Shown: piece after piece, positions 1-10,254 of the stretch
Numbering within the stretch: position 1 is the first letter of the stretch
Layout of the letters: each line of letters starts with the position of its first letter
Origin: Planctomycetota bacterium
GTDB taxonomy: Bacteria > Planctomycetota > UBA11346
DNA: 10,254 nucleotides
NCBI GenBank assembly: GCA_007695355.1
Contig: REDX01000241.1
Location: 1-10,254, forward strand
Reading direction: 5' to 3'
Notes under the pieces: generated by a model
What the model was told of the DNA's origin: nothing
The model's database searches: none
Seen by the model: only the letters and a program-made list of their open reading frames with translations
Translations under genes and position numbers: made by a program

Positions 1-3000
1 AAACCGGAATAGGGATGCTCTAACTCCGAGCGCAGCTCGTCTTCGCCCTGGCTGATGCGCAGCAGACGATAGAAGTCGGCCTGGGAGCGCGAGGCAATGG
101 GGGCCAACACCGGATTGACGGTGAGACAGTTTTCCAAATAGGAGAGTTCAAAAGCCCCTTGGTGACCGCCGAGAATATCGCCGAGATTATAGGTATCAGC
201 GCGGTTGGCGAGCATATCAGGAATGCGGAAGCGCTCGCCGGATTCGGTATAGGGGTTGCCAGCCATGACCACCGCCACCTTTTTACCGCGCATATCGTAG
301 GTGCGAGTACGGCCACGCCACACGCCCTCGATGCGCCGCTGACCGTCGCACAGGGAGATGAATTTTTGCAAAAATTCAGGATGGCAGTGCTGAATGTCAT
401 CGACATAGATCATGACATTATTGCCCATTTCAAAGCTCAAATTGAGCTTCTCCAATTCCTGGCGGGCAGTGGCATTGGGGGCCTGCTCGGGATCCAGGCT
501 GGTTACCTCGTGACCAAGGGAGGGCCCATTGATCTTCATAAAGGTGAGACCCATAATCGAAGAGACGTACTCCATGAGGGTGGTCTTGCCGTAACCCGGG
601 GGCGAGATCAGCAATAAGAGGCCCATCAGGTCGGTGCGCTTGGCATCGCCGACGGCGCCAATCTGCTTGGCCAGATTATCACCGATCAGCGGCAGATAGG
701 CCTCATTAATCAGCTTATTGCGGACAAAACTGGTAAGCACCTTGGGCTTGAATTCTTCTAAGCGCAGTCGCTCGCGTTCGCGGGTCACCAACTCCCGGCG
801 CTGGTCATGGTAGGCGCGGTAGGCGGGAATGCGCTGTTCGATAAAGCGGCTGAGGCGGGCCTCAACATCATCGAGGCGCAGCTCCATGCGGCCGCCGCTG
901 ATGCGTCCGTGCTGGCCCAGTAGGCCCTCAACTTCGACCTGGGAGCGGGCGTGCACCGAGGTGCGGGGCAATTCCGGCAGACACAGGCCCAGGGCCACTT
1001 CGTCAATAATCGGCTGCCACTCGGGATGCTGCTGCTCGGCCCAACGATCGATCCAGGCCTTGGCCAACTGCCACTGCTCTTCGCGGTTGCGGGCGAGACG
1101 GGCAAGGTCGCGGCGCAGACGATCGTCGGCCCCGCGGGTGGACAAATCGGCCCAGAAGGCCTGCTCGCACTCCTCGGCCTCGCCCGAGCGCACCGCCTGG
1201 AAATCGTCTCCCGCCGCCAATTCCTCAAGCAAGTAGCTGGCAGCATTGCGGGCATGGGAATCGCCATCGGCAGCCAGGCCACAGCGGTTTTCGTAGCTGC
1301 CGATGAGCTCCGCCATTTCCCTGATCTGGGCCTGCTGCTCGGGACCAGCGCCAAAAAGGCCGCGCAGACTGACTAAGGAGCGGCAGCGGCGTGCCAGGCG
1401 CTTGCGCTGCTCGGCATCGGGCAGATCAGCCCACCACAGCAGGGCCAGGGCGCGGGCGGCGGTGGGGAAGCGTAAGAGGCCGCAGGTGGCCCGCAGGTGC
1501 AGCAGGGCATACAGGATTTTTACCGCATCGGCATCGTGCAACCCCCGCTCGTAGCCTTCCTCGTAGCGATCGCCGGCAACCCGGCGCACCAGGGCGGTAA
1601 GCTCAGCCTCATCGAGAGCCACTTTCTGCAGATACTCGAGACTGAGGCGCTGATCGCCAACCTGGCCCCCCTTCTCGGCTATGCGGATAATGTGCATGGC
1701 GAGAAATTCAGCGCGGTAAACTTTAGCATCTTCGCTGATTAAGTCCTCATTCCAAAAACGACGGGTAGCGAGAAATGCCTCATCGCGCACCGCCTCGAAG
1801 TAATCGGTGCCGCTGAGATGGAAACACATGCCGTCATCGCGGGGCAGTAGGGTAAGTTCCAGGTCTTGGCTATTGCGGCTAAAGCGATGCCGGCCCAGTT
1901 TGACGACTTCGCCTTCAAAGAGTTCAGACTTATCGCGCAGGGCGCGCACGCCATCCTCGCGGGAGGCCTTAATCCGGCTTTCAATATCATCGGATTTTAC
2001 CGAATCGCCCAAGTCCAGCAGACGCTTAACGATATCGCGCAGTTTGCCGAGCATCGGATCGGCGGCAAACCAGGCATTTAAATCATCCAGGCTGCTAAAG
2101 CTCAGGGCCCGCTTGCGCACGCCATCGAGAATGCGATCGGCGGCGCGGGAGAGGGAATTAGCCTGACGCTGACGCTCATCTAGCAGGGTTTGTTTGCGAC
2201 TCTGGAAGACCTCGTAAATTTCTTCACGCTTTTCTGAGAGCTGCTCGGTAAATGCATCAAATTCAATAAAGCGGCCTTCGATTTCCTCCAACTGCAAGAG
2301 TAATTTGCCAAGAAAATCGTCGACCTGGGCGGGCTCCTTGGCCAGGCCCAAATAGTTATTGGCGGTTTGCGAGAGAATCGTGAACTGGGCCGCAAACTCG
2401 GCCTGACCCTCGTGGCTGCCAAGGTCTGCGCGGCGGGCGGCGGCCACTGCTTTGGCGCGGTTGAGCCGGCCGTAAACCTCGGAGATGCGCTCCAGGATTT
2501 GCGTCCGCGCCACCGGGTCGTCGATCTCCAGGCTGCCGACGATTTCCATCAGCATATCCAAGCCAGATCCCAGTTCGTCCATGCGCCCAACCACCGGGCG
2601 CAGGTCCGCGGTTTTACTCACCGCCTGGGCTTCCTTCTCGAGGCTTGCAACCTCGTCGTAATAGGGCTGCACCGCCTCCGGTTGAAGGAGGAATTCCACC
2701 GCCGCGCGCGAGCGATCATCGGCGGCCTTCGTCAGATCGGTATCTAAAGCATCGAGGACTTCGCCATTGGTATAACGCACTTCGCGCAGGGATTGCACCT
2801 GGCCGCGGCGGCGGCGGATGCTGGCGAGCACGGTGACGAATTCGTCGATGTGCTCGTAGGCGGCAATCGCCACCTCACGCAAGGTTGCGCGCACCTCATC
2901 GCTGAGGCTGCGCACCCGTTGGCTGGCCTGCTTGGTGAGCTCTTGCACCTTCTCGAATTCGCCGATTACCTGGTCAGCGGTTTTCTGCGTAACGAGCAAT

Positions 3001-4454
3001 TGCTCGCGCAGGCCGCAGGCCTCGGCATGGCCCAGCCAATGGAATTGATCGAGGGTGCGGGTAATCGTGGCGAGAAGATCCTCGTAGACTACCCGCGATG
3101 GCTTTTGATCGGCAACCAAACGGACAATATGCAGACAGTCGGAAATGGCACGCACCAAATCACGATTACCGATGGTGGCGAGATGGGATCCCGGCGGCCG
3201 CGGCTTGGAGAGGGCGTAGGACTCGTCCTCGAAGGGCGTGGCCCATAGCTGCATGGTGTGCGAACGGGTGGGCGCATCGTCGGCGCGGAAGAGTATCAAG
3301 CGGCCATTGGGATAGAGGGCATAGCCGGAACACAGTATGGGATTCGCTACCTCGCGGCTAATCAGATTATACTGCAGAATAATATAATTGCCGCCGGTGG
3401 TATCGTGGAAGATATAAGCGATATCTTCACCATTGGGCGAGCGCACCGAGCGCACAAAGGCCATGCCCTCAGCGCGATGGGGAAAGACTTTATAATCGCC
3501 AGTGGCCAAATAATAACCATTGGGGAAAATCAGACCGTGGCCCTCGGGCAATTCTTGACAGGCGACACCGATGGCATCCAGGCGCACCGCCTCCGAGGCC
3601 TGTTTATTATAGACGATATAGCGATCCACCGTCTCCTGGTAGGGGCGCATGCGCAGGACAATGCAGCTCTCTAAATTGGCATAGGCAATCTGGGCATCAT
3701 CCAGGCCCTGGGTGGCATTATCCACCGGTTCTGCATAGATACCGTCACCGGAGGCGGTGTTATCTTCAACCTTAATCGTCAAATCACCTTCGGTGCACTC
3801 GACAAAGATAGTGTCATCAATATTAATATGGGCGTGCTGCCCGTAGACGTGCATATCGCGGGTGGTGCGCGTCCATTCCCAGGAATAGCGGGGCGGCAGT
3901 ACATGGTCGCGCTCGCCGCGGTTATCGATGTATTTAAGACCATCACCGTCTAAAGCCCAGCGCAGCACTTTGACATCGCCGGCGCGAGCACCGACTTGAA
4001 AAATCATTAAAAGGTGGGTTTCGGTGCGCCGAAGCTGTAGCAGACGGGCGTCTTTGTAGTACTGAAAAAGTTCAGTGAAATCTTTAATAAATGCGGGGTC
4101 GTTAAGGGCCTCGCGCTCAGCTGGAAGGAGGGCCCCGTCCTCGAGTTTAAATTTAGCGAAGACATCGGAAACCGCGGTTGCGCGCTTGAGGCCCATGAAG
4201 ACCTGGTAGCCAAAGATCAGCTTATTACCCTGGGCGCGGACAATGTCGCGGGCCACGCAGTTATGTTCGGTCTGTAGGTGGAAGGTATCGAGGAGGCGGG
4301 TTTCGGTGCCGCCGAAGATTTCGGTGCGCCGGGCATTGAGCTGGCCGACGCGACTACGCAGCTCCTGAGCCTGGTCGCTCAAACGCCGGCGGATAACTTC
4401 ATAGGTGCCGCCATCCAGGGCCTGCTGTTGCTGTTGCTGTTGCTCGTCGGCCAC
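1..4454 (-). CDS. Giant (more than 1,480 aa) multidomain protein, truncated at its 3' (C-terminal) end by the window edge. It has an N-terminal polyQ tract, a beta-rich repeat region, a central coiled-coil/helical region, and a C-terminal AAA+ ATPase domain of the AAA_5/MoxR/dynein-related type. Function unknown.
   Basis: Manual translation of the minus strand in the frame whose codons sit on + triplets starting at positions divisible by 3. There is no stop codon from 4496 down to position 3; the only in-frame stop is TGA, complement of 4497-4499. Translated motifs: ...LMGLLLLISPPGYGKTTLMEYV (Walker A, Lys codon at 585-587), ...NNVMIYVDDIQHCHPEF (Walker B, DD at 396-401), and ...VAVVMAGNPYTESGERFRIPDMLANRADTY (sensor region typical of AAA_5/MoxR-like ATPases). 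There is no ATG between the upstream stop and codon ~88. The most upstream plausible start is GTG at 4452-4454 (complement), with a GGAG 11 nt upstream, so the start is uncertain. This ORF is not in the supplied track, presumably because it is incomplete at the window edge. Confidence 0.8.
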   Translation of the reverse strand, partial: MADEQQQQQQQALDGGTYEVIRRRLSDQAQELRSRVGQLNARRTEIFGGTETRLLDTFHLQTEHNCVARDIVRAQGNKLIFGYQVFMGLKRATAVSDVFAKFKLEDGALLPAEREALNDPAFIKDFTELFQYYKDARLLQLRRTETHLLMIFQVGARAGDVKVLRWALDGDGLKYIDNRGERDHVLPPRYSWEWTRTTRDMHVYGQHAHINIDDTIFVECTEGDLTIKVEDNTASGDGIYAEPVDNATQGLDDAQIAYANLESCIVLRMRPYQETVDRYIVYNKQASEAVRLDAIGVACQELPEGHGLIFPNGYYLATGDYKVFPHRAEGMAFVRSVRSPNGEDIAYIFHDTTGGNYIILQYNLISREVANPILCSGYALYPNGRLILFRADDAPTRSHTMQLWATPFEDESYALSKPRPPGSHLATIGNRDLVRAISDCLHIVRLVADQKPSRVVYEDLLATITRTLDQFHWLGHAEACGLREQLLVTQKTADQVIGEFEKVQELTKQASQRVRSLSDEVRATLREVAIAAYEHIDEFVTVLASIRRRRGQVQSLREVRYTNGEVLDALDTDLTKAADDRSRAAVEFLLQPEAVQPYYDEVASLEKEAQAVSKTADLRPVVGRMDELGSGLDMLMEIVGSLEIDDPVARTQILERISEVYGRLNRAKAVAAARRADLGSHEGQAEFAAQFTILSQTANNYLGLAKEPAQVDDFLGKLLLQLEEIEGRFIEFDAFTEQLSEKREEIYEVFQSRKQTLLDERQRQANSLSRAADRILDGVRKRALSFSSLDDLNAWFAADPMLGKLRDIVKRLLDLGDSVKSDDIESRIKASREDGVRALRDKSELFEGEVVKLGRHRFSRNSQDLELTLLPRDDGMCFHLSGTDYFEAVRDEAFLATRRFWNEDLISEDAKVYRAEFLAMHIIRIAEKGGQVGDQRLSLEYLQKVALDEAELTALVRRVAGDRYEEGYERGLHDADAVKILYALLHLRATCGLLRFPTAARALALLWWADLPDAEQRKRLARRCRSLVSLRGLFGAGPEQQAQIREMAELIGSYENRCGLAADGDSHARNAASYLLEELAAGDDFQAVRSGEAEECEQAFWADLSTRGADDRLRRDLARLARNREEQWQLAKAWIDRWAEQQHPEWQPIIDEVALGLCLPELPRTSVHARSQVEVEGLLGQHGRISGGRMELRLDDVEARLSRFIEQRIPAYRAYHDQRRELVTRERERLRLEEFKPKVLTSFVRNKLINEAYLPLIGDNLAKQIGAVGDAKRTDLMGLLLLISPPGYGKTTLMEYVSSIMGLTFMKINGPSLGHEVTSLDPEQAPNATARQELEKLNLSFEMGNNVMIYVDDIQHCHPEFLQKFISLCDGQRRIEGVWRGRTRTYDMRGKKVAVVMAGNPYTESGERFRIPDMLANRADTYNLGDILGGHQGAFELSYLENCLTVNPVLAPIASRSQADFYRLLRISQGEDELRSELEHPYSG
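140..650 (-). other. AAA+ ATPase module (P-loop, Walker B, sensor) inside the giant CDS
   Basis: Seen in the translation: GYGKTT P-loop, hhhhDD Walker B, and a GNPxxExG...IPDxLxNRxD motif resembling MoxR/AAA_5 'ATQNP...LPEAxLDRF'. Confidence 0.7.
4422..4442 (-). repeat. Hexanucleotide/trinucleotide microsatellite, ctg(ctgttg)x3 on the + strand. It encodes QQQQQQQ near the N-terminus of the giant CDS.
   Basis: Direct reading: ctgctgttgctgttgctgttg. In the minus coding frame this is cag cag caa cag caa cag caa. Confidence 0.85.
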
Positions 4455-4503
4455 GGTACTCAGGGCTCCAGATCGGGGGGATGAAGATCGCGGGGATCAA
4501 TGA

Positions 4504-4531
4504 CCAGCCAGCGGAAATGAGCGCTGGCTGG
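4504..4531 (-). terminator. Perfect 10-bp inverted repeat with an 8-nt loop (ccagccagcg-gaaatgag-cgctggctgg), 14 nt downstream of the flotillin stop. Candidate terminator or attenuator, or an RNA-stability hairpin.
   Basis: Read directly from the sequence. On the transcribed (minus) strand the hairpin is followed by TCATTGATCC, which is only a weak U-tract. Confidence 0.4.
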
Positions 4532-4544
4532 CCCTGCTGGCGGC

Positions 4545-6560
4545 TTATTTCTCGTTCTGTAGCCAGCCGCTTAGATCATCAAAACCCAACTCCTTGGCTT
4601 TGGCCAGAAGCTCTTGCACCTTGGCCGGATCGCTGGTACCGATCTTGCGCATCAGCCAGGAGCTCACCAGGTTTTTGACATCTCCACTACCCAGCTTGCC
4701 GCTGCCTAGGACCTGAACCAAATCGGCGGGCAAAGAACGACCGCCTTCCATATAGTCGCTGGCGGCGTGCTGCAGGAGATCGCTGCGCCCGTGGGCGGCA
4801 TCAAGGCTCTTGCCGAAGGTGACCGCTTTGACGAAGCGATCGAAGAATTGGCCGTCGCCACCGACAATGTCGATCTTGGCCTTCTCCAGGGCCTGAGCCA
4901 TGACATGGGCGTTCTTCTCGGCGATTTCCACCTGGGCGCTGATCTCGGCCTTGGCGATTGAGAGGTCCTTCTCCAATCGCAGGCGAAACTCTTCGTGGGA
5001 GCGGGTGCTCTCGTTGAGCAGCTTCATCGCTTCGGCTTTCTCTGAGATGCCGGCGGCCTCGGCGGCCATCTTCTCGCGCACCGCATCGGCTTCCGCCTTG
5101 CCGCGCAGGGCGATGACCTTGGCCTGGGCCTCTTCCACCCGGACCTGAGCCAAGCCCTGCTTCTCGCTGGCGGCAGCATCGGCTTCCTTAACCTTGGCCG
5201 CGGCCAAGCCATCGGCGGCGGCGGTGGCCTGGCTGCCTTCGGCGCGACGAATGGCGGCCTGGGCTTCCTTCTCGGCGGCGGCCTGCTCGGCCTCGGCGAG
5301 GACCAGTTTTTCTTTGGCGTTATGCACCGCAGAGAGCTCAGCGGCTTCGGCGGCCTGAACTTCGCGGATCTTGCGATCGGCAGCTTCGGCTTCGGCGCGG
5401 GTTACCGCCACCTGCTTAATACGATCGGCTTCCATGGTAGCGCGGATATCCTTGATCCGCTCTTCTTCCTGGGCTACCGACTTTTCCACCACCACCCGTT
5501 CGCGGATTACCTCGGCGATATTCTTACGCTCGACTTCCAGGGCCTTTTCTTTCTCAATACGCTGCAGTTCCACCGCACGCTCGCGGTTGATGCGTTCGAG
5601 ATCGCGCTCTTTCTCAACCCGCTCTTCTTCCACAGCGATAACACGCTCGCGATTTTTAGCTGCTACTTCGACTTCGCGCTGGGCGTTTTCGCGGTCGATG
5701 CCAAGCTTCTGCTCGGCTTCGATATTGGCTTGATCAGAGCGGTATTTCTCTTCGAACTGCACCTTCTCAATTTCCGCGGTCTCGCGGGCGGCAACCACCG
5801 CAACTTCGCGCTGCTGTTTGGCCACCGCATCGGCTTCCTGGCGCTCAAGGGCAAGGATGGCTTCGCGGGCTTCGACGTCTTGCTTCTTCAACGCCTTTTC
5901 ACCCTCGCGCTGGATCTCGTTGGCGTGCACCCGTTGGTTGGTGGTGAGGTCGATAATCTTGCGCCGTCCTTGGGCATCAAGAATGTTGTCAGGATCCAAG
6001 CTGGAGAGCGGGGTTTGCTCGAGATAGTCAATGGCGCTGTCTTCAAGCACATAACCTGAGAGGTCTTTGCCGATAACATCGATAATCGCTTCTTTGAACT
6101 TTTGGCGCTCATTATAGAGGTCCTCAAAGTCCATCTGTTTACCGACGGTTTTCAGGGCTTCGGAGAACTTGGCGCTAAAGAGTTCTTCCAGGGTTTCCCG
6201 GCGGCTGGCCCGTTGGACACCGACATTGGTGGCCACCTTGCGCACATCGTCAGCGGTGGGGTTCACCTTAACGAAGAAAGTCACCTTTATATCAGCGCGA
6301 ATATTATCGCGGCAGATCAAGCCGTTCTTGCCTTGCCGGTCGATCTCGATGGTCTTCACCGAGATATCCATAATTTCCACCTTGTGGATAACCGGGATAA
6401 CGACACCACCGGTAAAGACCACGTCAGGTTCGCGTTTCATTTTATTGATAATCAGCGCCTTACCCTGCTCTACCTTGCGATAGAGCGAGAAGATCATGAT
6501 TATAATGCCCAAGAGAATAAAGAGCAGGATCGCCGCAGCGAGAATCACATAAATCAACAT
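4545..6560 (-). CDS. yqiK: Flotillin-like SPFH/Band-7 family protein (YqiK-like). It has an N-terminal TM helix, an SPFH domain and a long Ala/Glu-rich coiled coil.
   Basis: ORF-track protein of 671 aa. Its N-terminus MLIYVILAAAILLFILLGIIIMIFSLYRKVEQGKALIINKMKREPDVVFTGGVVIPVIHKVEIMDISVKTIEIDRQGKNGLICRDNIRADIKVTFFVKVN is a classic flotillin/YqiK start. The EA/AK-rich coiled coil is typical. A GGAG lies 7 nt upstream of the ATG at 6560 on the minus strand. Confidence 0.9.
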   Translation of the reverse strand: MLIYVILAAAILLFILLGIIIMIFSLYRKVEQGKALIINKMKREPDVVFTGGVVIPVIHKVEIMDISVKTIEIDRQGKNGLICRDNIRADIKVTFFVKVNPTADDVRKVATNVGVQRASRRETLEELFSAKFSEALKTVGKQMDFEDLYNERQKFKEAIIDVIGKDLSGYVLEDSAIDYLEQTPLSSLDPDNILDAQGRRKIIDLTTNQRVHANEIQREGEKALKKQDVEAREAILALERQEADAVAKQQREVAVVAARETAEIEKVQFEEKYRSDQANIEAEQKLGIDRENAQREVEVAAKNRERVIAVEEERVEKERDLERINRERAVELQRIEKEKALEVERKNIAEVIRERVVVEKSVAQEEERIKDIRATMEADRIKQVAVTRAEAEAADRKIREVQAAEAAELSAVHNAKEKLVLAEAEQAAAEKEAQAAIRRAEGSQATAAADGLAAAKVKEADAAASEKQGLAQVRVEEAQAKVIALRGKAEADAVREKMAAEAAGISEKAEAMKLLNESTRSHEEFRLRLEKDLSIAKAEISAQVEIAEKNAHVMAQALEKAKIDIVGGDGQFFDRFVKAVTFGKSLDAAHGRSDLLQHAASDYMEGGRSLPADLVQVLGSGKLGSGDVKNLVSSWLMRKIGTSDPAKVQELLAKAKELGFDDLSGWLQNEK

Positions 6561-6596
6561 GGAGGGGCTCCGTGTAGGGAGGATGAAAAGATAAGG

Positions 6597-7286
6597 TTAA
6601 GATTCCTGGGGGAGGGATTCCGAACGCGTAGAGACCATGCCCACCTGGGCGAGGGGCCGCACGGTGTAGCTGCCGCATTGAGGGTCATAATTAGTGATTA
6701 CCGCCGCCGAGTCCATGGCCATATCATTGGGTATGTCGCAGACCACATTCAGCAGAAGCTCTTGGCCATGGTGATCGGGCACCTTGAAGATGGCGGTACC
6801 GAAGGTTTCGCTGACCCTTGAGGAGGTGATGATAACCTGCCCACCGATGAGATTGCCAGCGCCGCGGACGGTGTGCACCCGAAAGAGAGGCTTAAGCGGA
6901 CGGGCAGTGTAGGTGGTTAGCCAGAGAGCGCCGACAAAGCTGCCGAGGAATATGGTGGTACCGATGAGGCCGACGAGAATGCCACTAATCAGTAAGGGCA
7001 TAATGAAAAGCTGAGCGGCAATGCTGATCAGCCAGGACTTGAAAACCAGCAAGGAGATCACCACCGTCAGCGGCACCTGGCCCAGGGAGAGGGCATGGGA
7101 AAGGCCGCTGAGTACACCCCCCCCCTCCACCTGGGCATCGATCTCGGCTTCGGCATCGCCGGGGAAAATATCAATGCCGAGGGCGCCAACCATGACCAGA
7201 GACCAATAGCCCAGGATAGCGAGCATAAGGGTGGTCCAGATTACCGTCGGAAAGCCGAGTAAGGTTGTCAGCATCTCATCAATCAT
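6597..7286 (-). CDS. yqiJ: NfeD-like (YqiJ-like) polytopic membrane protein with a C-terminal OB-fold-like domain. It is the upstream partner of the flotillin gene in an operon.
   Basis: The track ORF 6597..7673 has a 129-codon upstream extension. The first Met at 7286-7284 (second ATG at 7274) precedes TM-rich MIDEMLTTLLGFPTVIWTTLMLAILGYWSLVMVGALGIDIF... The C-terminal part, VHTVRGAGNLIGGQVIITSSRVSETFGTAIFKVPDHHGQELLLNVV, matches the soluble NfeD beta-barrel. The gap to the flotillin start is 36 nt, and NfeD-flotillin pairing is canonical. No strong Shine-Dalgarno sequence is visible, so the start is somewhat uncertain. Confidence 0.75.
   Translation of the reverse strand: MIDEMLTTLLGFPTVIWTTLMLAILGYWSLVMVGALGIDIFPGDAEAEIDAQVEGGGVLSGLSHALSLGQVPLTVVISLLVFKSWLISIAAQLFIMPLLISGILVGLIGTTIFLGSFVGALWLTTYTARPLKPLFRVHTVRGAGNLIGGQVIITSSRVSETFGTAIFKVPDHHGQELLLNVVCDIPNDMAMDSAAVITNYDPQCGSYTVRPLAQVGMVSTRSESLPQES
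7117..7125 (-). repeat. Homopolymeric C9 (G9 on the coding strand) inside the NfeD-like CDS, encoding EGGGV.
   Basis: Direct reading of acaCCCCCCCCCtcc. The minus-strand frame reads gtg gag ggg ggg ggt gta. Confidence 0.8.
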
Positions 7287-7436
7287 AGGGACGAGGACCC
7301 TAGCAAAGGCCTTGACGAAGGGAAATGATTTTCTGCCGGCTCGGTACCACCATTTCCTTGCGACCAGGCCTGAGCTCCATACCGTAATCGCCAACACCTG
7401 CCCCGGCCCCCCAGCGGGAGGCCTTGGAGATTCGCC
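7287..7436. promoter_or_regulatory. 150-bp divergent intergenic region between the NfeD/flotillin operon (-) and the PspA/AAA+ operon (+). Bidirectional promoters are expected here.
   Basis: It lies between two divergently oriented start codons. There are -35-like hexamers TTGACG (7311-7316) and TTGCGA (7356-7361), with weak -10-like CGTAAT/ACCGTA about 17-19 nt downstream. There is a strong RBS ggaga 6 nt before the PspA ATG. No convincing sigma54 (GG-N10-GC) element was found. Confidence 0.35.
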
Positions 7437-8276
7437 ATGTTTCGCGCCATCGGTCGTTGGTTCCGCAGCCTCGGATATTTGGTTAGTGGCCGGGTTGAGT
7501 CCTCGGCCCGACGCATGGATACAGATCCCCACGCCATGCGCTCGAAGTACGATGATGTGATCCGGGAAAAGACCAAGCGCATCCAGCAATATAAAGAAGC
7601 GGTGGCCGGACTCATCGCCCAGCAAGAACACAAGATGAGTCAGGTCAAAAATCTGAGCGAAGAACTCAAGCACCTGGAAGATCTCAAGGCCGGCGCCCTC
7701 GCCAAGGCCCAGCAGCGGGTGGGCGAACTACAGGCCAAGGGCGCCGATAAATCCGTCATCCAGAGCGACCCCGATTACCAGAAATGCCTGAACGCCTTTA
7801 ATGACTTCACCTCCACCGGCACCGAAAAGCAGGCCCGCGTCGATGAAGCCGAAGGCGAAATCGAGGATTTTGGCCGGCGCATTAAAGAGCACACCTTGCA
7901 GTTGGAAGTGCTGCGCAAGGAAATCGAAAAGCTGCGCTCGGAAGCTAACGAGGCGGTGGCCGATGTGATCTCGGCCAAGCAAGAGGCCGAACTCAATGAT
8001 GCTCTTTCCGGCATTGGCACCGACTCCACCTCAGAGAAGCTTGGCGAGCTGCGCCGTATGCGCTCGGAAGTCAAGGCCAGCGCCCGGGTTAGCAAAGAGC
8101 TGGCGGGCACCGATCACAAACTGGCCGAAGCCGAATTCCTGGAATACGCCCGTAAAAACGCCGGCAATACGGAGTTCGAACGTCTGGTGGGGCTGGCCGC
8201 CGGCAGCGATGCCCCAAGCCCCGAGGCCAGTGAAAAGGCCGCGCCCAGCCCTGAACGCGAGCGCCTGCCCGAATAG
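7437..8276 (+). CDS. pspA: PspA/IM30/Vipp1-family (ESCRT-III superfamily) coiled-coil membrane-remodelling protein
   Basis: 279-aa ORF. It has an N-terminal amphipathic helix MFRAIGRWFRSLGYLV, followed by long heptad coiled-coil sequence (KEAVAGLIAQQEHKMSQVKNLSEELKHLEDLKAGALAKAQQRVGELQ...) whose length and periodicity are like PspA/Vipp1. A GGAGA RBS lies at -6. It sits immediately upstream of an AAA+ ATPase, a documented PspA partner. The family assignment is by pattern, not by search. Confidence 0.7.
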   Translation: MFRAIGRWFRSLGYLVSGRVESSARRMDTDPHAMRSKYDDVIREKTKRIQQYKEAVAGLIAQQEHKMSQVKNLSEELKHLEDLKAGALAKAQQRVGELQAKGADKSVIQSDPDYQKCLNAFNDFTSTGTEKQARVDEAEGEIEDFGRRIKEHTLQLEVLRKEIEKLRSEANEAVADVISAKQEAELNDALSGIGTDSTSEKLGELRRMRSEVKASARVSKELAGTDHKLAEAEFLEYARKNAGNTEFERLVGLAAGSDAPSPEASEKAAPSPERERLPE

Positions 8277-8293
8277 GCTGTCCGGGCACCCCC

Positions 8294-10090
8294 ATGGTCT
8301 CCTCTCCCACCCGCTCTCAATTGCGCTTTCTGCGCGACGCGGCGCGCCTGCTTAATGCCGGGCAGACCCGCAGCCTTATTCTATCTGGTAATGTCGCCGA
8401 CCTCTTCCCCCCTCCCGACGGCGACGGGAACGATGAATGGGTACCCCTGCCCGAACTCCTACGCCGCTCCTGGAGCGTGCCCGGGCGGCTGGTCATTACC
8501 TACGAAATCAATGGCCCCCTGCGCTTCCAAAGCGAAGCCGTGCAGCGTCGCCTGCGCGATGCCTGGGTGCGCTGGCGCACCGGCCTGGGCCCGGGTGACC
8601 TCGCCCTACAGCGCCTAGCCAGCGGCCAATCCCCCGGCGATATTGATGCCGGCTTTGACCAGCTCTGTGCCCAGGCCATTGGCAAGCCAACCCTGGCCCT
8701 CGAGCTCTTGCGCCAGTTCTGCTGTTGCTCGCGCCTCGAACATCAGGGGGCGCCGGTGCTGCGCGAGGACCTGCTGATCATTATTGAGGCCGCCGATCTG
8801 ATTCTCCCCGAGGCGACGATTTCCTCCCTCGGCGATGCCGATCGCCAGCGCCTGCATATCTGTCACGACTGGTTTGCCGATCCCGAATTTAATGCCGCCT
8901 ACGATGCGGTGGTGCTCATCTGTGAAAGCCGGGCCGCCCTCAATCAGCGCATCGCTCGACTGCCGCAGATGCTAGAAATGACGGTGGACGATCCGGATCT
9001 CGCACTACGCGAGGCCTATATCGCCCACGAGGACATCCCGGAACTCAGCCCCGAGGATCGGACGCGCCTAGCCCTCGGCTCGGCCGGCCTCACCATCCAT
9101 GCCCTGCGTCAGCTGCTCCTCGGCATAAACCATAACCATGGCACCTGGAGCCCGGCCCTCCTCATCGATAAGGTGGAAGAGCATTTGCTGGCGCAATTGG
9201 GGGAGGATTCCATCTCCTTTTCCCGGCCCAACCACACCCTTGCCCAGGTCATGGGCTTTGACCGCCTCAAGCGCTTTCTCGCCGAAGAGCTGGTGCCGCG
9301 ACTGCGCCACGGTGGCGCCGCCGCCCTTTCCGGGGCCGCGGTATGCGGGCCCATCGGCGCCGGTAAGACCTTTATCTTTGAGGCCGTGGCCGGGGAATTG
9401 GGCCTGCCAGTTTTAGAGCTCAAAAATCTGCGCTCGCAGTGGTTTGGCCAGACCGATGCCATTGTCGAGCGCCTGCGCCGCCTGCTCACCGCCCTCGATC
9501 GGGTGGTAATTATGGTCGACGAAGCTGACACCCAATTTGGCGATCTGGGCCCGGGCAGCCACGAAACCGAACGCCGTCTCACCGGCCGCCTACAAAGCAT
9601 GATGAGCGACCCTAAGCTTTTAGGTAAGGTTTTTTGGCTGCTCATGACCGCCCGCATCGACCGCCTCTCGGCCGACCTTCGCCGCCCCGGCAGAGCTGGG
9701 GATCTGATTATCCCGGTCCTTGATCCCAGCCCGGAAGAGCGCCAGGCCTTCGTCCTTTGGACCTGCGAACCGGTGTGCCTGGCACCCTCACACGGATTGC
9801 GCAAGCGCCTGCTGGCCCACACCCATGACTGGTCTGCCGCCGCCTACGCCAGCCTGCGCCGAGAACTGCAGGCCCAGCGCAATACCCTAGGCAAAGACCT
9901 CAGCGAGGCCGAAATCCTGGCCCTGGTCGAAGACCGCCTGCTACCCCCCCTGGCCCAAGTACGACGCCGACAAACCCTGCTCGCCCTACTCAATTGCACC
10001 CGGCGCAGCCTGCTGCCCGATCCCGAAGTGGATGAGGCCACGCGCGAATCCTGGCGCCGAGAACTGGCGGCCCTCGAGATGACTCCGTAG
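8294..10090 (+). CDS. Classical-clade AAA+ ATPase (Vps4/FtsH-like ATPase core) with a roughly 330-aa N-terminal domain, possibly a degenerate pseudo-ATPase, and a C-terminal helical region
   Basis: 598-aa ORF with Walker A CGPIGAGKTF, Walker B VVIMVDEAD, sensor-1 region LLMTAR, and an arginine-finger-like DLRRPGRAGDLI (compare RPGRFDR of classical AAA). The N-terminal half contains Walker-B-like LLIIIEAADLI without a P-loop. It starts 17 nt after the PspA stop, with no obvious Shine-Dalgarno sequence, so coupling is likely. Confidence 0.85.
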   Translation: MVSSPTRSQLRFLRDAARLLNAGQTRSLILSGNVADLFPPPDGDGNDEWVPLPELLRRSWSVPGRLVITYEINGPLRFQSEAVQRRLRDAWVRWRTGLGPGDLALQRLASGQSPGDIDAGFDQLCAQAIGKPTLALELLRQFCCCSRLEHQGAPVLREDLLIIIEAADLILPEATISSLGDADRQRLHICHDWFADPEFNAAYDAVVLICESRAALNQRIARLPQMLEMTVDDPDLALREAYIAHEDIPELSPEDRTRLALGSAGLTIHALRQLLLGINHNHGTWSPALLIDKVEEHLLAQLGEDSISFSRPNHTLAQVMGFDRLKRFLAEELVPRLRHGGAAALSGAAVCGPIGAGKTFIFEAVAGELGLPVLELKNLRSQWFGQTDAIVERLRRLLTALDRVVIMVDEADTQFGDLGPGSHETERRLTGRLQSMMSDPKLLGKVFWLLMTARIDRLSADLRRPGRAGDLIIPVLDPSPEERQAFVLWTCEPVCLAPSHGLRKRLLAHTHDWSAAAYASLRRELQAQRNTLGKDLSEAEILALVEDRLLPPLAQVRRRQTLLALLNCTRRSLLPDPEVDEATRESWRRELAALEMTP

Positions 10091-10103
10091 AACTTCCGCG
10101 GGA

Positions 10104-10254
10104 GACATAAATAAGGGACATAAATAAGGTAAATGAGGGTAAATGAGGTAAATGAGGGACATGCAGTAAGGTAAATGAGGGACATGCAGTAAATAATAAG
10201 ATAAATGAGGATAAATGAGGATAAATGAGGATAAATGAGGATAAATGAGGATAA
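10104..10254. repeat. AT-rich nested tandem-repeat array: 13-mer gacataaataagg x2, then 23-mer ggtaaatgagggacatgcagtaa x2, then decamer ataaatgagg x5 or more, continuing beyond the window. It is built on a core TAAATGAGG motif that occurs 9 times in total.
   Basis: Direct reading of 10104-10254. Five perfect decamer copies lie at 10201-10250 plus a partial sixth. There are stop codons in all frames. It sits immediately downstream of the AAA+ gene stop at 10088-10090. Confidence 0.9.

Follow-up and report, generated by a model that had tools for sequence, protein, structure and literature searches.

A flotillin operon beside a divergent PspA-like/AAA+ pair: a new combination of published modules in one Planctomycetota clade

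The subject of this study is a 10,254-bp contig of a Planctomycetota metagenome-assembled genome (GCA_007695355.1, contig REDX01000241.1), which was analysed whole and is called the window below, and which is occupied from end to end by five long open reading frames (ORFs) in six-frame analysis. Three of them, on the minus strand and in order of transcription, encode a membrane protein of 225 amino acids (aa), a flotillin of 671 aa and a giant ATPase (we call these genes the trio); the other two diverge from them on the plus strand and encode a PspA-like protein of 279 aa and then an AAA+ protein of 598 aa. Trio and pair are two independently conserved modules that have been joined in one clade, and the locus is a new combination of published PspA- and flotillin-associated modules, so far confined to one clade of Planctomycetota. 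The novelty lies in the PspA partner: where other bacteria have CesT/Tir-PspA beside the trio, this locus has a PspA of another clade together with an ATPase of its own.

The identities of the five genes, the conservation of each module and the juxtaposition of the two in this clade are plain from the comparisons given below. We also consider it fairly probable that the contig carries two divergent operons, each of a known type of bacterial membrane-maintenance module, and that these work by the mechanism outlined further on. A first-pass annotation of the same DNA, made from the letters alone, had placed all five genes correctly, and its identities prove broadly right by ORF, Pfam and fold evidence. 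It had also read the five genes as one undescribed system, and on this point the outcome is divided: the layout is kept in five further contigs, but the genes do not co-occur widely, and both modules, with the rationale for them, were published in 2024 (PMC11237479).

Distribution of the two modules

A co-occurrence analysis run from both sides found the two modules largely independent of each other outside one clade, which goes against the single system that had been claimed. From the side of the giant ATPase, a scan of one genome per species gave 541 confirmed relatives, and the best 80 loci (mostly Myxococcota, some Gammaproteobacteria) were analysed, 65 of them being informative, that is, with at least 3.2 kb of upstream sequence. 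In 51 of the 65, the giant gene is immediately preceded by a co-oriented flotillin gene; in four the flotillin gene lies farther upstream, and in ten (nine Sorangium and one other) it is absent. Of the 55 informative loci with flotillin upstream, 48 have a detectable YqiJ-like gene, corresponding to that of the 225-aa protein. Clustering of the neighbouring ORFs found no further neighbour of the trio conserved across lineages, only lineage-specific clusters, and the trio keeps a stable chromosomal position across Myxococcaceae. The trio is split or interrupted in the genus Sorangium: flotillin is not found within 10 kb upstream at L005, L006, L009, L010, L012, L013, L017, L020 and L051, and it lies 5-7 kb from the giant gene at L024, L031 and L059.

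From the other side, the AAA+ protein has relatives in Planctomycetota, Verrucomicrobiota, Hydrogenedentota, Acidobacteriota and others, and identity within the family stays above 50% between these phyla; metagenomes scanned for it yielded 74 loci, 30 of them informative (at least 5 kb upstream). Eighteen of these 30, drawn from many phyla, have a PspA-like gene upstream in the same orientation; it is adjacent in five, 2.5-5 kb upstream in 12 and farther away in one. The remaining 12 have no PspA-like gene upstream, although one (L138) has one downstream. At one further locus (L164) the pair (9069-11884) is followed 1.4 kb downstream by a gene for a shorter Band_7 protein of 383 aa (13251-14402), with an integrase-like (Arm-DNA-bind_3) gene alongside; this is maybe a second, independent association of the pair with an SPFH protein.

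The complete divergent layout recurs only in five related contigs (L081, L082, L083, which is partial, L162 and L163), and the flanking genes are different and unrelated each time. Compared with the window, the AAA+ protein is 56-77% identical in L081, L082 and L083, and the PspA-like protein 63-65% in L162 and L163; over the further contigs in general, the range for the AAA+ protein is 53-77%. All three of the contigs with a taxonomic label (the window, L081 and L082) are Planctomycetota.

Other lineages have other PspA-type genes beside the same trio. A YjfI/YjfJ dyad lies upstream of it at five gammaproteobacterial loci (L068, L071, L072, L074 and L079); in Arenicella (L068) the trio is preceded by a DUF2170/YjfI gene and a bona fide PspA gene (PF04012, E 6e-45). 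A Hymenobacter plasmid (L166, NZ_CP010056.1) carries a series of genes for a Tir chaperone, PspA/IM30, a "DUF1449 family protein" in the slot of the YqiJ-like gene, a hypothetical protein of flotillin size and a "DNA repair ATPase". On the megaplasmid pQBR103 (L165, NC_009444.1) the series begins with PspA/IM30, rhomboid, DUF2491, DUF350 and DUF1190 genes and continues with glutathionylspermidine synthase, a hypothetical protein, SPFH and again "DNA repair ATPase". This occurrence of different PspA types beside one and the same trio in Bacteroidota, Gammaproteobacteria and Planctomycetota argues, short of proof, for a functional link between flotillin and PspA and against chance.

Some details of these contexts may be recorded. 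A LexA-family regulator gene lies divergently upstream of the Hymenobacter operon, a gene for MvaT/MvaU follows that of pQBR103, and neither context offers a visible basis for the name "DNA repair ATPase". At L074, a DUF350 (YjfL-type) gene and an M50B peptidase gene (5505-7069) precede the YqiJ-like gene, and next after the giant ATPase gene comes one (15450-19076) for a DUF2339 membrane protein of 1208 aa.

It could be argued that these are two independent systems, neighbours by descent only, whose adjacency has no functional meaning, and we regard this as possible though not probable. Since the modules are never neighbours outside the clade, their pairing could be inherited synteny without functional coupling. 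Within 10 kb, 79 of the 80 trio loci have no PspA-like gene and none of the 80 has an AAA+ gene; the one PspA-like gene found is a distant homolog 3 kb downstream, at L001. Conversely, the trio is missing from all 74 metagenome loci of the AAA+ gene, the intergenic region between the two operons is not conserved, and the labelled five-gene contigs all come from one phylum. However, the block has been kept at 53-65% protein identity with flanks that differ in every contig, and in Gammaproteobacteria and Bacteroidota the same trio has acquired PspA partners of other types; for both reasons the recurring link between PspA and the trio looks selected. L001 happens to be the closest relative of the giant ATPase in the genome collection (56% identical), and in the region 9004-12454 (minus strand) its PspA-like gene follows genes for an MscS-like mechanosensitive channel and an ornithine decarboxylase, a possible link to polyamines and osmotic stress.

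The flotillin operon

The flotillin has the SPFH/Band_7 domain and the N-terminal anchor of the YqiK/FloT type. Its Band_7 match (PF01145) scores 35.8 bits, above the cut-off of 23.6, a single N-terminal transmembrane (TM) helix is predicted at aa 5-23, and over 457 aa the protein shares 29% identity with E. coli YqiK (E 4e-40). The flotillin C-terminal domain (PF15975, Flot) gives a match below threshold (18.0 bits, cut-off 27), and a long coiled coil rich in Ala and Glu is apparent by inspection.

The protein encoded immediately upstream of this SPFH gene has about three TM segments (at about 4-34, 60-91 and 90-108) and a C-terminal soluble domain, which are the topology and the position of NfeD, YqiJ and YuaF. 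It was first labelled NfeD, and the label stands as far as topology and position go; for the family itself there is no match in Pfam or PDB, and a profile of 18 homologs aligns with E. coli YqiJ (hhalign) at E 1.1e-4 with a probability of only 56%. Two of the 18 homologs match YqiJ_N (best 8.3e-05), one matches YqiJ_OB at 0.0055, and the homolog in L082 barely passes the YqiJ_N cut-off (23.2 bits, cut-off 23). These alignments lend weak support to the name YqiJ/YuaF-like, which we think is the best one for this putative partner of the flotillin.

The spacer between the flotillin and giant genes is 90 nt long and contains a stem-loop with a 12-bp stem (fold z-score -1.5), so that the hairpin noticed in the first reading is real. 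It has no U-tract on the coding strand, no terminator-like site was found on the minus strand at this place, and the stem-loop is absent in L081, where the gap is 24 nt; we have rejected it as a terminator on these grounds. Because the hairpin is no canonical terminator and is not conserved, co-transcription of the two genes is likely, and they behave as one operon elsewhere too (adjacent in 51/65), in agreement with what had been suggested.

The giant ATPase gene begins with GTG at 4454, and 1484 aa of the product are seen before the contig ends and the C-terminus is lost; full-length relatives have 1746-1813 aa in the close contigs, and overall mostly about 1750-1950 aa. Pfam finds DUF3686 (E 4e-177) and DUF7902 (7e-29). 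Residues 1-480 were modelled with AlphaFold2 (AF2) and 28 homologs, with high confidence (predicted local distance difference test, pLDDT, 89.9; predicted template modelling score, pTM, 0.88); the model begins with a long helix, after which comes an all-beta domain. Foldseek gives 199 PDB matches to the DUF3686 model at E <= 0.001, and the top matches listed are beta-propellers (such as Elp1, WDR5, IFT-A, Sec12 and sialidases); DUF3686 is, on this model, a beta-propeller with the long helix on its N-terminal side. Seven consecutive glutamines (a CAG/CAA repeat, 4422-4442, minus strand; residues 5-11) precede this conserved helix. DUF7902 falls within the long helical or coiled-coil middle region, and the ATPase core towards the C-terminus has the Walker A motif SPPGYGKT and the Walker B motif MIYVDD. 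A motif scan of the core found no aromatic pore loop and no RxPGR motif; lacking the aromatic pore loop, the giant ATPase is probably not a threading unfoldase. With both DUFs, a propeller fold, a C-terminal P-loop ATPase and flotillin upstream, the protein has all the marks of the "beta-propeller+coiled-coil+AAA" type.

Two names attached to this protein call for comment. The first is AAA_5, under which the core had been classed: plain AAA (PF00004) scores 28.0 bits and AAA_5 (PF07728) 27.4, both at about 3e-06 and just over their cut-offs, so that AAA_5 is no better supported than AAA. With a profile of 12 homologs, the matches to solved AAA proteins are restricted to the P-loop region (best E 1e-05), these relatives being classical-clade proteins, and AAA_5 as a specific class is not supported. 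The second name is "DNA repair ATPase" (NCBI), echoed by Pfam, where DUF3686 is an "ATPase involved in DNA repair". If the names were right, the giant protein would be a DNA-repair ATPase and its adjacency to flotillin incidental; there are indeed weak P-loop matches to RuvB, and the LexA-family regulator gene of Hymenobacter could be cited in the same sense. The RuvB similarity, however, is limited to the P-loop and reaches 16-18 bits where the cut-offs are 282-299, Pfam finds no DNA-binding or nuclease domain, and the sole conserved neighbours, in Myxococcota, Gammaproteobacteria, Bacteroidota and Planctomycetota alike, are two membrane proteins. We think a role in DNA repair is the least probable of the explanations considered here, and that the name, unsupported in this case, is probably misleading.

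A possible phage-defence role had also been raised, in which the system would kill or arrest infected cells by membrane remodelling. Defence systems commonly include large NTPases that carry a propeller or a coiled coil as sensor, and the trio is found on a few megaplasmids. On the other hand, PADLOC finds nothing for the giant ATPase, the flotillin or the YqiJ-like protein, and what it reports for the PspA-like protein and the AAA+ protein is noise from coiled coils (LmuB, JetC) or from the P-loop (IetA), with E values of at least 5e-05. A search of 50,697 phage records found no homolog of the propeller domain of the giant protein, and plasmids seldom carry the family (13 of 72,556 records, for the most part megaplasmids or chromids). 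The neighbours are housekeeping and membrane-stress genes, with no defence islands or mobile elements, and the chromosomal position in Myxococcaceae is, as said, stable. We therefore give the defence hypothesis very little credence, and have rejected it along with a reading of the locus as a mobile element.

The PspA-like protein and its AAA+ neighbour

The AF2 model of the 279-aa protein (pLDDT 75) has helices at 31-100, 112-192 and 198-242, and the hairpin formed by the first two is predicted with pLDDT above 90; an alpha1/alpha2-3 hairpin followed by shorter helices is the ESCRT-III-type arrangement. Foldseek ranks 1-11 in PDB are all Vipp1 or PspA (E 1e-4 to 2e-2), with TM-scores that are low (0.3-0.45), as expected for flexible helical proteins. 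A cationic amphipathic helix alpha-0 is predicted at the N-terminus: the first 16 or so residues are the most amphipathic segment of the protein, whose hydrophobic moment averages 0.31 and peaks at 0.82 in the 14-residue windows that begin at residues 1-3. The polar face of this segment carries R3, R7 and R10, and W8 and R7 are invariant in 26 homologs. PF04012 (PspA_IM30) is the commonest Pfam match among these 26 (16 at E <= 0.01, best 9e-07), and the family aligns with bona fide YjfJ-type PspA (hhalign) at E 1.3e-4 with a probability of 54%, over the N-terminal 87 columns only. A full HMMER scan delimits a small and sharply bounded family of 582 cluster representatives (E <= 0.001) among 1.84 billion. 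Taking the fold and helix matches together with these sharp bounds and with the failure to reach PF04012 described below, we conclude that the protein is a separate family, distantly related to PspA/Vipp1.

The AAA+ gene begins 17 nt after the PspA-like gene. Its product has a Walker A motif (GPIGAGKT, aa 352), an aromatic pore loop (WFG, aa 383), a Walker B motif (VIMVDE, aa 405) and RRPGR at aa 463, and with pore loop 1 and the arginines of the second region of homology it belongs to the classical clade of AAA proteins. Its profile matches VAT/Cdc48/p97 at E 3e-28, and among solved relatives VAT, AFG2 and Cdc48 come first (E 9e-21 to 5e-17) and Vps4 well behind (about 1e-9). The NCBIfam model of CdvC scores 22.3 bits where the cut-off is 650, and Pfam finds no MIT domain. 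The description "Vps4-like" in the first-pass annotation thus holds as a functional analogy, but not as kinship: there is no MIT match, and the nearest relatives are VAT, Cdc48 and AFG2.

Residues 1-340 of this protein are P-loop-less, and yet they are conserved across phyla as strongly as the catalytic domain, with the motifs YE(L/I)NGPxRF, CxCSR and DWFxDPxF; such conservation implies strong constraint, and this is probably the part that binds a substrate or partner. No GK[ST] P-loop occurs in the N-domain (the sole Walker A match of the protein is that at aa 352), and a stretch IIIEAAD can be read as Walker-B-like. A profile search of PDB with the N-domain gave only a weak match, to the linker/lid of an archaeal Vps4-like AAA protein (E 0.07), and hhalign of the N-half against the C-half found no internal duplication. 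The N-domain is probably the "inactive classical AAA" domain of the literature.

What the AAA+ protein acts on may be asked. In other phyla its gene shares operons with genes for ABC transporters, OmpA and VWA proteins: at L159, a block of nine genes on one strand (2641-12879) encodes VWA, OmpA, hypothetical, PspA-like, hypothetical, ABC permease, ABC ATPase, AAA+ and hypothetical proteins, so that the gap between the PspA-like and AAA+ genes is filled by ABC-transporter genes (the proteins of 261, 361 and 352 aa at this locus have no Pfam match). It can accordingly be proposed that the tandem AAA+ protein services a membrane transport or envelope complex, and that the PspA-like protein is a membrane stabiliser merely co-expressed with it. 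The 12 of 30 loci without an upstream PspA-like gene, and the lack in the AAA+ protein of an MIT-like domain for ESCRT-III tails, speak in the same sense. Against this, the two genes are directly adjacent in this clade and at several other loci, and the pairing of a classical AAA protein with an ESCRT-III-like one has a well-established precedent in Vps4/Snf7 (PMC8281802, PMC11237479). We consider the transport hypothesis unlikely, although less so than phage defence or DNA repair.

Relation to published systems

Both modules were described by Ravi et al. 2024 (mSystems, PMC11237479), including the giant ATPase as a partner of flotillin and PspA. That paper reports operons of the type CesT/Tir-PspA + YqiJ/YuaF + Band-7/flotillin + "beta-propeller+coiled-coil+AAA", and (Text S2.2, Table S3) a dyad of PspA with "inactive classical AAA + classical AAA", which can be part of a longer operon that also encodes an ABC ATPase, a permease and a PBPB/OmpA protein. 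The literature also confirms that PspA is associated with AAA+ ATPases and Band-7 proteins, as the first-pass annotation had stated. That annotation had proposed the giant protein as a new fifth component; since it is the propeller-AAA+ partner that these authors already reported, this proposal falls.

The window shares with the CesT/Tir-PspA operons the core order of YqiJ-like protein, flotillin and propeller/coiled-coil/AAA+ ATPase, with a PspA-type gene adjoining; this core recurs in 51 of the 65 informative loci and in the annotated Hymenobacter and pQBR103 records. It differs from them in having no CesT/Tir (DUF2170) gene, and in that its PspA-type gene belongs to a different and much more divergent family and lies on the opposite strand with its own tandem AAA+. 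Among the passages that term searches of the text and supplement of PMC11237479 brought up, none has the combination of PspA-like/AAA+ pair and trio. The pair resembles the published dyad in that a PspA-like gene directly precedes that of a protein of about 600 aa with a P-loop-less N-terminal part and an active C-terminal one, and in that relatives share their operons with genes for OmpA, an ABC permease and an ABC ATPase (L159); the AAA+ protein is thus encoded, like that of the dyad, next to a PspA-type gene and sometimes with ABC transporter and OmpA genes. The likeness to the examples AEY64320.1 and OGG56892.1 is one of architecture and context only, and the AAA fold of the N-domain is putative.

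Compared with ESCRT-III/Vps4 (Snf7-Vps4, CdvB-CdvC), the pair has likewise a helical-hairpin protein and a classical-clade AAA+ protein with pore loop and arginine fingers, and the common logic is likely to be assembly of a polymer followed by its ATP-driven disassembly. Unlike Vps4, the AAA+ protein of the window is tandem-domain, has no MIT match and is far closer to VAT/Cdc48/AFG2 (1e-20 to 1e-28, against about 1e-9 for Vps4), and its partner is closer to Vipp1/PspA than to Snf7.

In E. coli yqiJ-yqiK and B. subtilis yuaF-floT(-yuaI), as in the window, a small TM protein is followed by a flotillin with an N-terminal TM helix. No giant ATPase gene lies downstream of yqiK in E. coli, unlike in the window, and the relationship to YqiJ is only marginally detectable; to our knowledge there is none downstream in the B. 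subtilis operon either. In the latter, yuaI encodes a GNAT protein. In L081, the closest full-length relative of the window, a GNAT acetyltransferase gene (101-607, minus strand) overlaps the 3' end of the giant ATPase gene and recalls yuaI; the window stops short of the corresponding position.

Literature searches brought up no experimental study of the giant DUF3686 ATPase or of the tandem AAA+ partner of PspA, and no paper on DUF3686, or on flotillin together with a DNA repair ATPase; the giant ATPase goes unmentioned in the passages retrieved from papers on P. aeruginosa SPFH proteins and on Shewanella SO1377.

Proposed mechanism

SPFH proteins are membrane-anchored oligomeric scaffolds that act together with NfeD-type partners, and a classical AAA protein that has an aromatic pore loop acts by threading and extracting its substrates. 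On this basis, the TM helix would anchor the flotillin, which with help from the YqiJ-like protein would oligomerise into a scaffold under the membrane, and on this scaffold the giant ATPase may dock through its propeller and coiled coil; with ATP, it would assemble, move or dismantle the scaffold or its clients. The PspA-like protein would bind stressed membrane through its amphipathic helix alpha-0 and polymerise, as PspA and Vipp1 do on stressed membranes through the same helix (PMC8281802). The tandem AAA protein, in which the WFG pore loop and the RRPGR fingers are intact, would extract and recycle the PspA-like subunits in the way Vps4 acts on ESCRT-III. In this clade both modules probably answer the same envelope stress through the 162-bp control region that they share, and the PspA-like/AAA+ pair may have taken the place that the CesT/Tir-PspA pair holds beside the trio in other phyla.

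We think it fair to set out together what weighs against this mechanism. The activities, interactions and expression that it supposes are predicted from sequence and models. Co-regulation through the shared region is plausible but unsupported: a promoter scan found no sigma-70-like site in it, and an alignment of the six five-gene contigs showed no conserved motif or operator. The PspA-like protein itself fails the PF04012 threshold (17.2 bits, cut-off 33.9), and of ten divergent members of its family none reaches PF04012 at E 0.001; the YqiJ/NfeD assignment of the 225-aa protein is weak as well. To these points must be added the separate distributions of trio and pair (no AAA+ gene beside the trio, no trio beside the AAA+ gene) and the operons with ABC transporter, OmpA and VWA genes, from which it follows that the client of the AAA+ protein may not be PspA alone.

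A bolder version, which we think possible but less likely than not, is that the two modules have merged in this clade into one five-component machine with two different AAA+ motors. The ESCRT-III-like polymer and its disassembly ATPase would then either act on the flotillin scaffold or be brought in by it, and this scaffold would have a propeller-bearing remodelling ATPase of its own. If this were true, the interchangeable PspA partners of the trio would mark a general, uncharacterised flotillin-PspA membrane-repair pathway.

Feature coordinates

Table 1. Position of genes, domains and other elements in the window.
Feature	Coordinates	Strand	Basis or remark
Giant beta-propeller/coiled-coil/AAA+ ATPase	3..4454	-	ORF open to base 3
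DUF3686 domain (giant ATPase aa 31-472)	3039..4364	-	Pfam, AF2 model, Foldseek
DUF7902 (giant ATPase aa 593-676)	2427..2678	-	Pfam PF25472, E 7e-29
Divergent AAA+ core of giant ATPase (aa 1280-1403)	246..617	-	Pfam, motifs
Stem-loop, 12-bp stem, in flotillin/giant-gene spacer	4502..4533	-	Centroid structure
YqiK/FloT-type flotillin, 671 aa	4545..6560	-	Pfam, YqiK similarity, TM prediction
YqiJ/YuaF-like (NfeD-type) membrane protein, 225 aa (putative)	6597..7274	-	TM segments, hhalign to YqiJ
Divergent intergenic region, 162 bp, promoters presumed	7275..7436	.	Between the two operons
PspA/Vipp1-like (ESCRT-III superfamily) protein, 279 aa	7437..8276	+	AF2 model, Foldseek
N-terminal 340 aa of AAA+ protein, P-loop-less, conserved	8294..9313	+	Motifs, profile searches
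Active classical-clade AAA domain and C-terminal helical region	9314..10090	+	Motifs, profile match

One further ORF, of 113 aa (9844-10185, minus strand), overlaps the 3' end of the AAA+ gene; it matches no family and is probably spurious. In the related contig L083, a convergent gene with an Hpt domain begins directly after the stop codon of the AAA+ gene.

Implications

The locus reveals no new kind of system. Its main value, in our opinion, is that it highlights two widespread and experimentally untouched AAA+ ATPases and strengthens the connection between flotillin and PspA: with three PspA-type partners now seen beside the same trio in separate lineages, the case that flotillin and ESCRT-III-like proteins act in one pathway becomes stronger. 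The compact five-gene block found in these Planctomycetota is moreover a convenient target for reconstitution.

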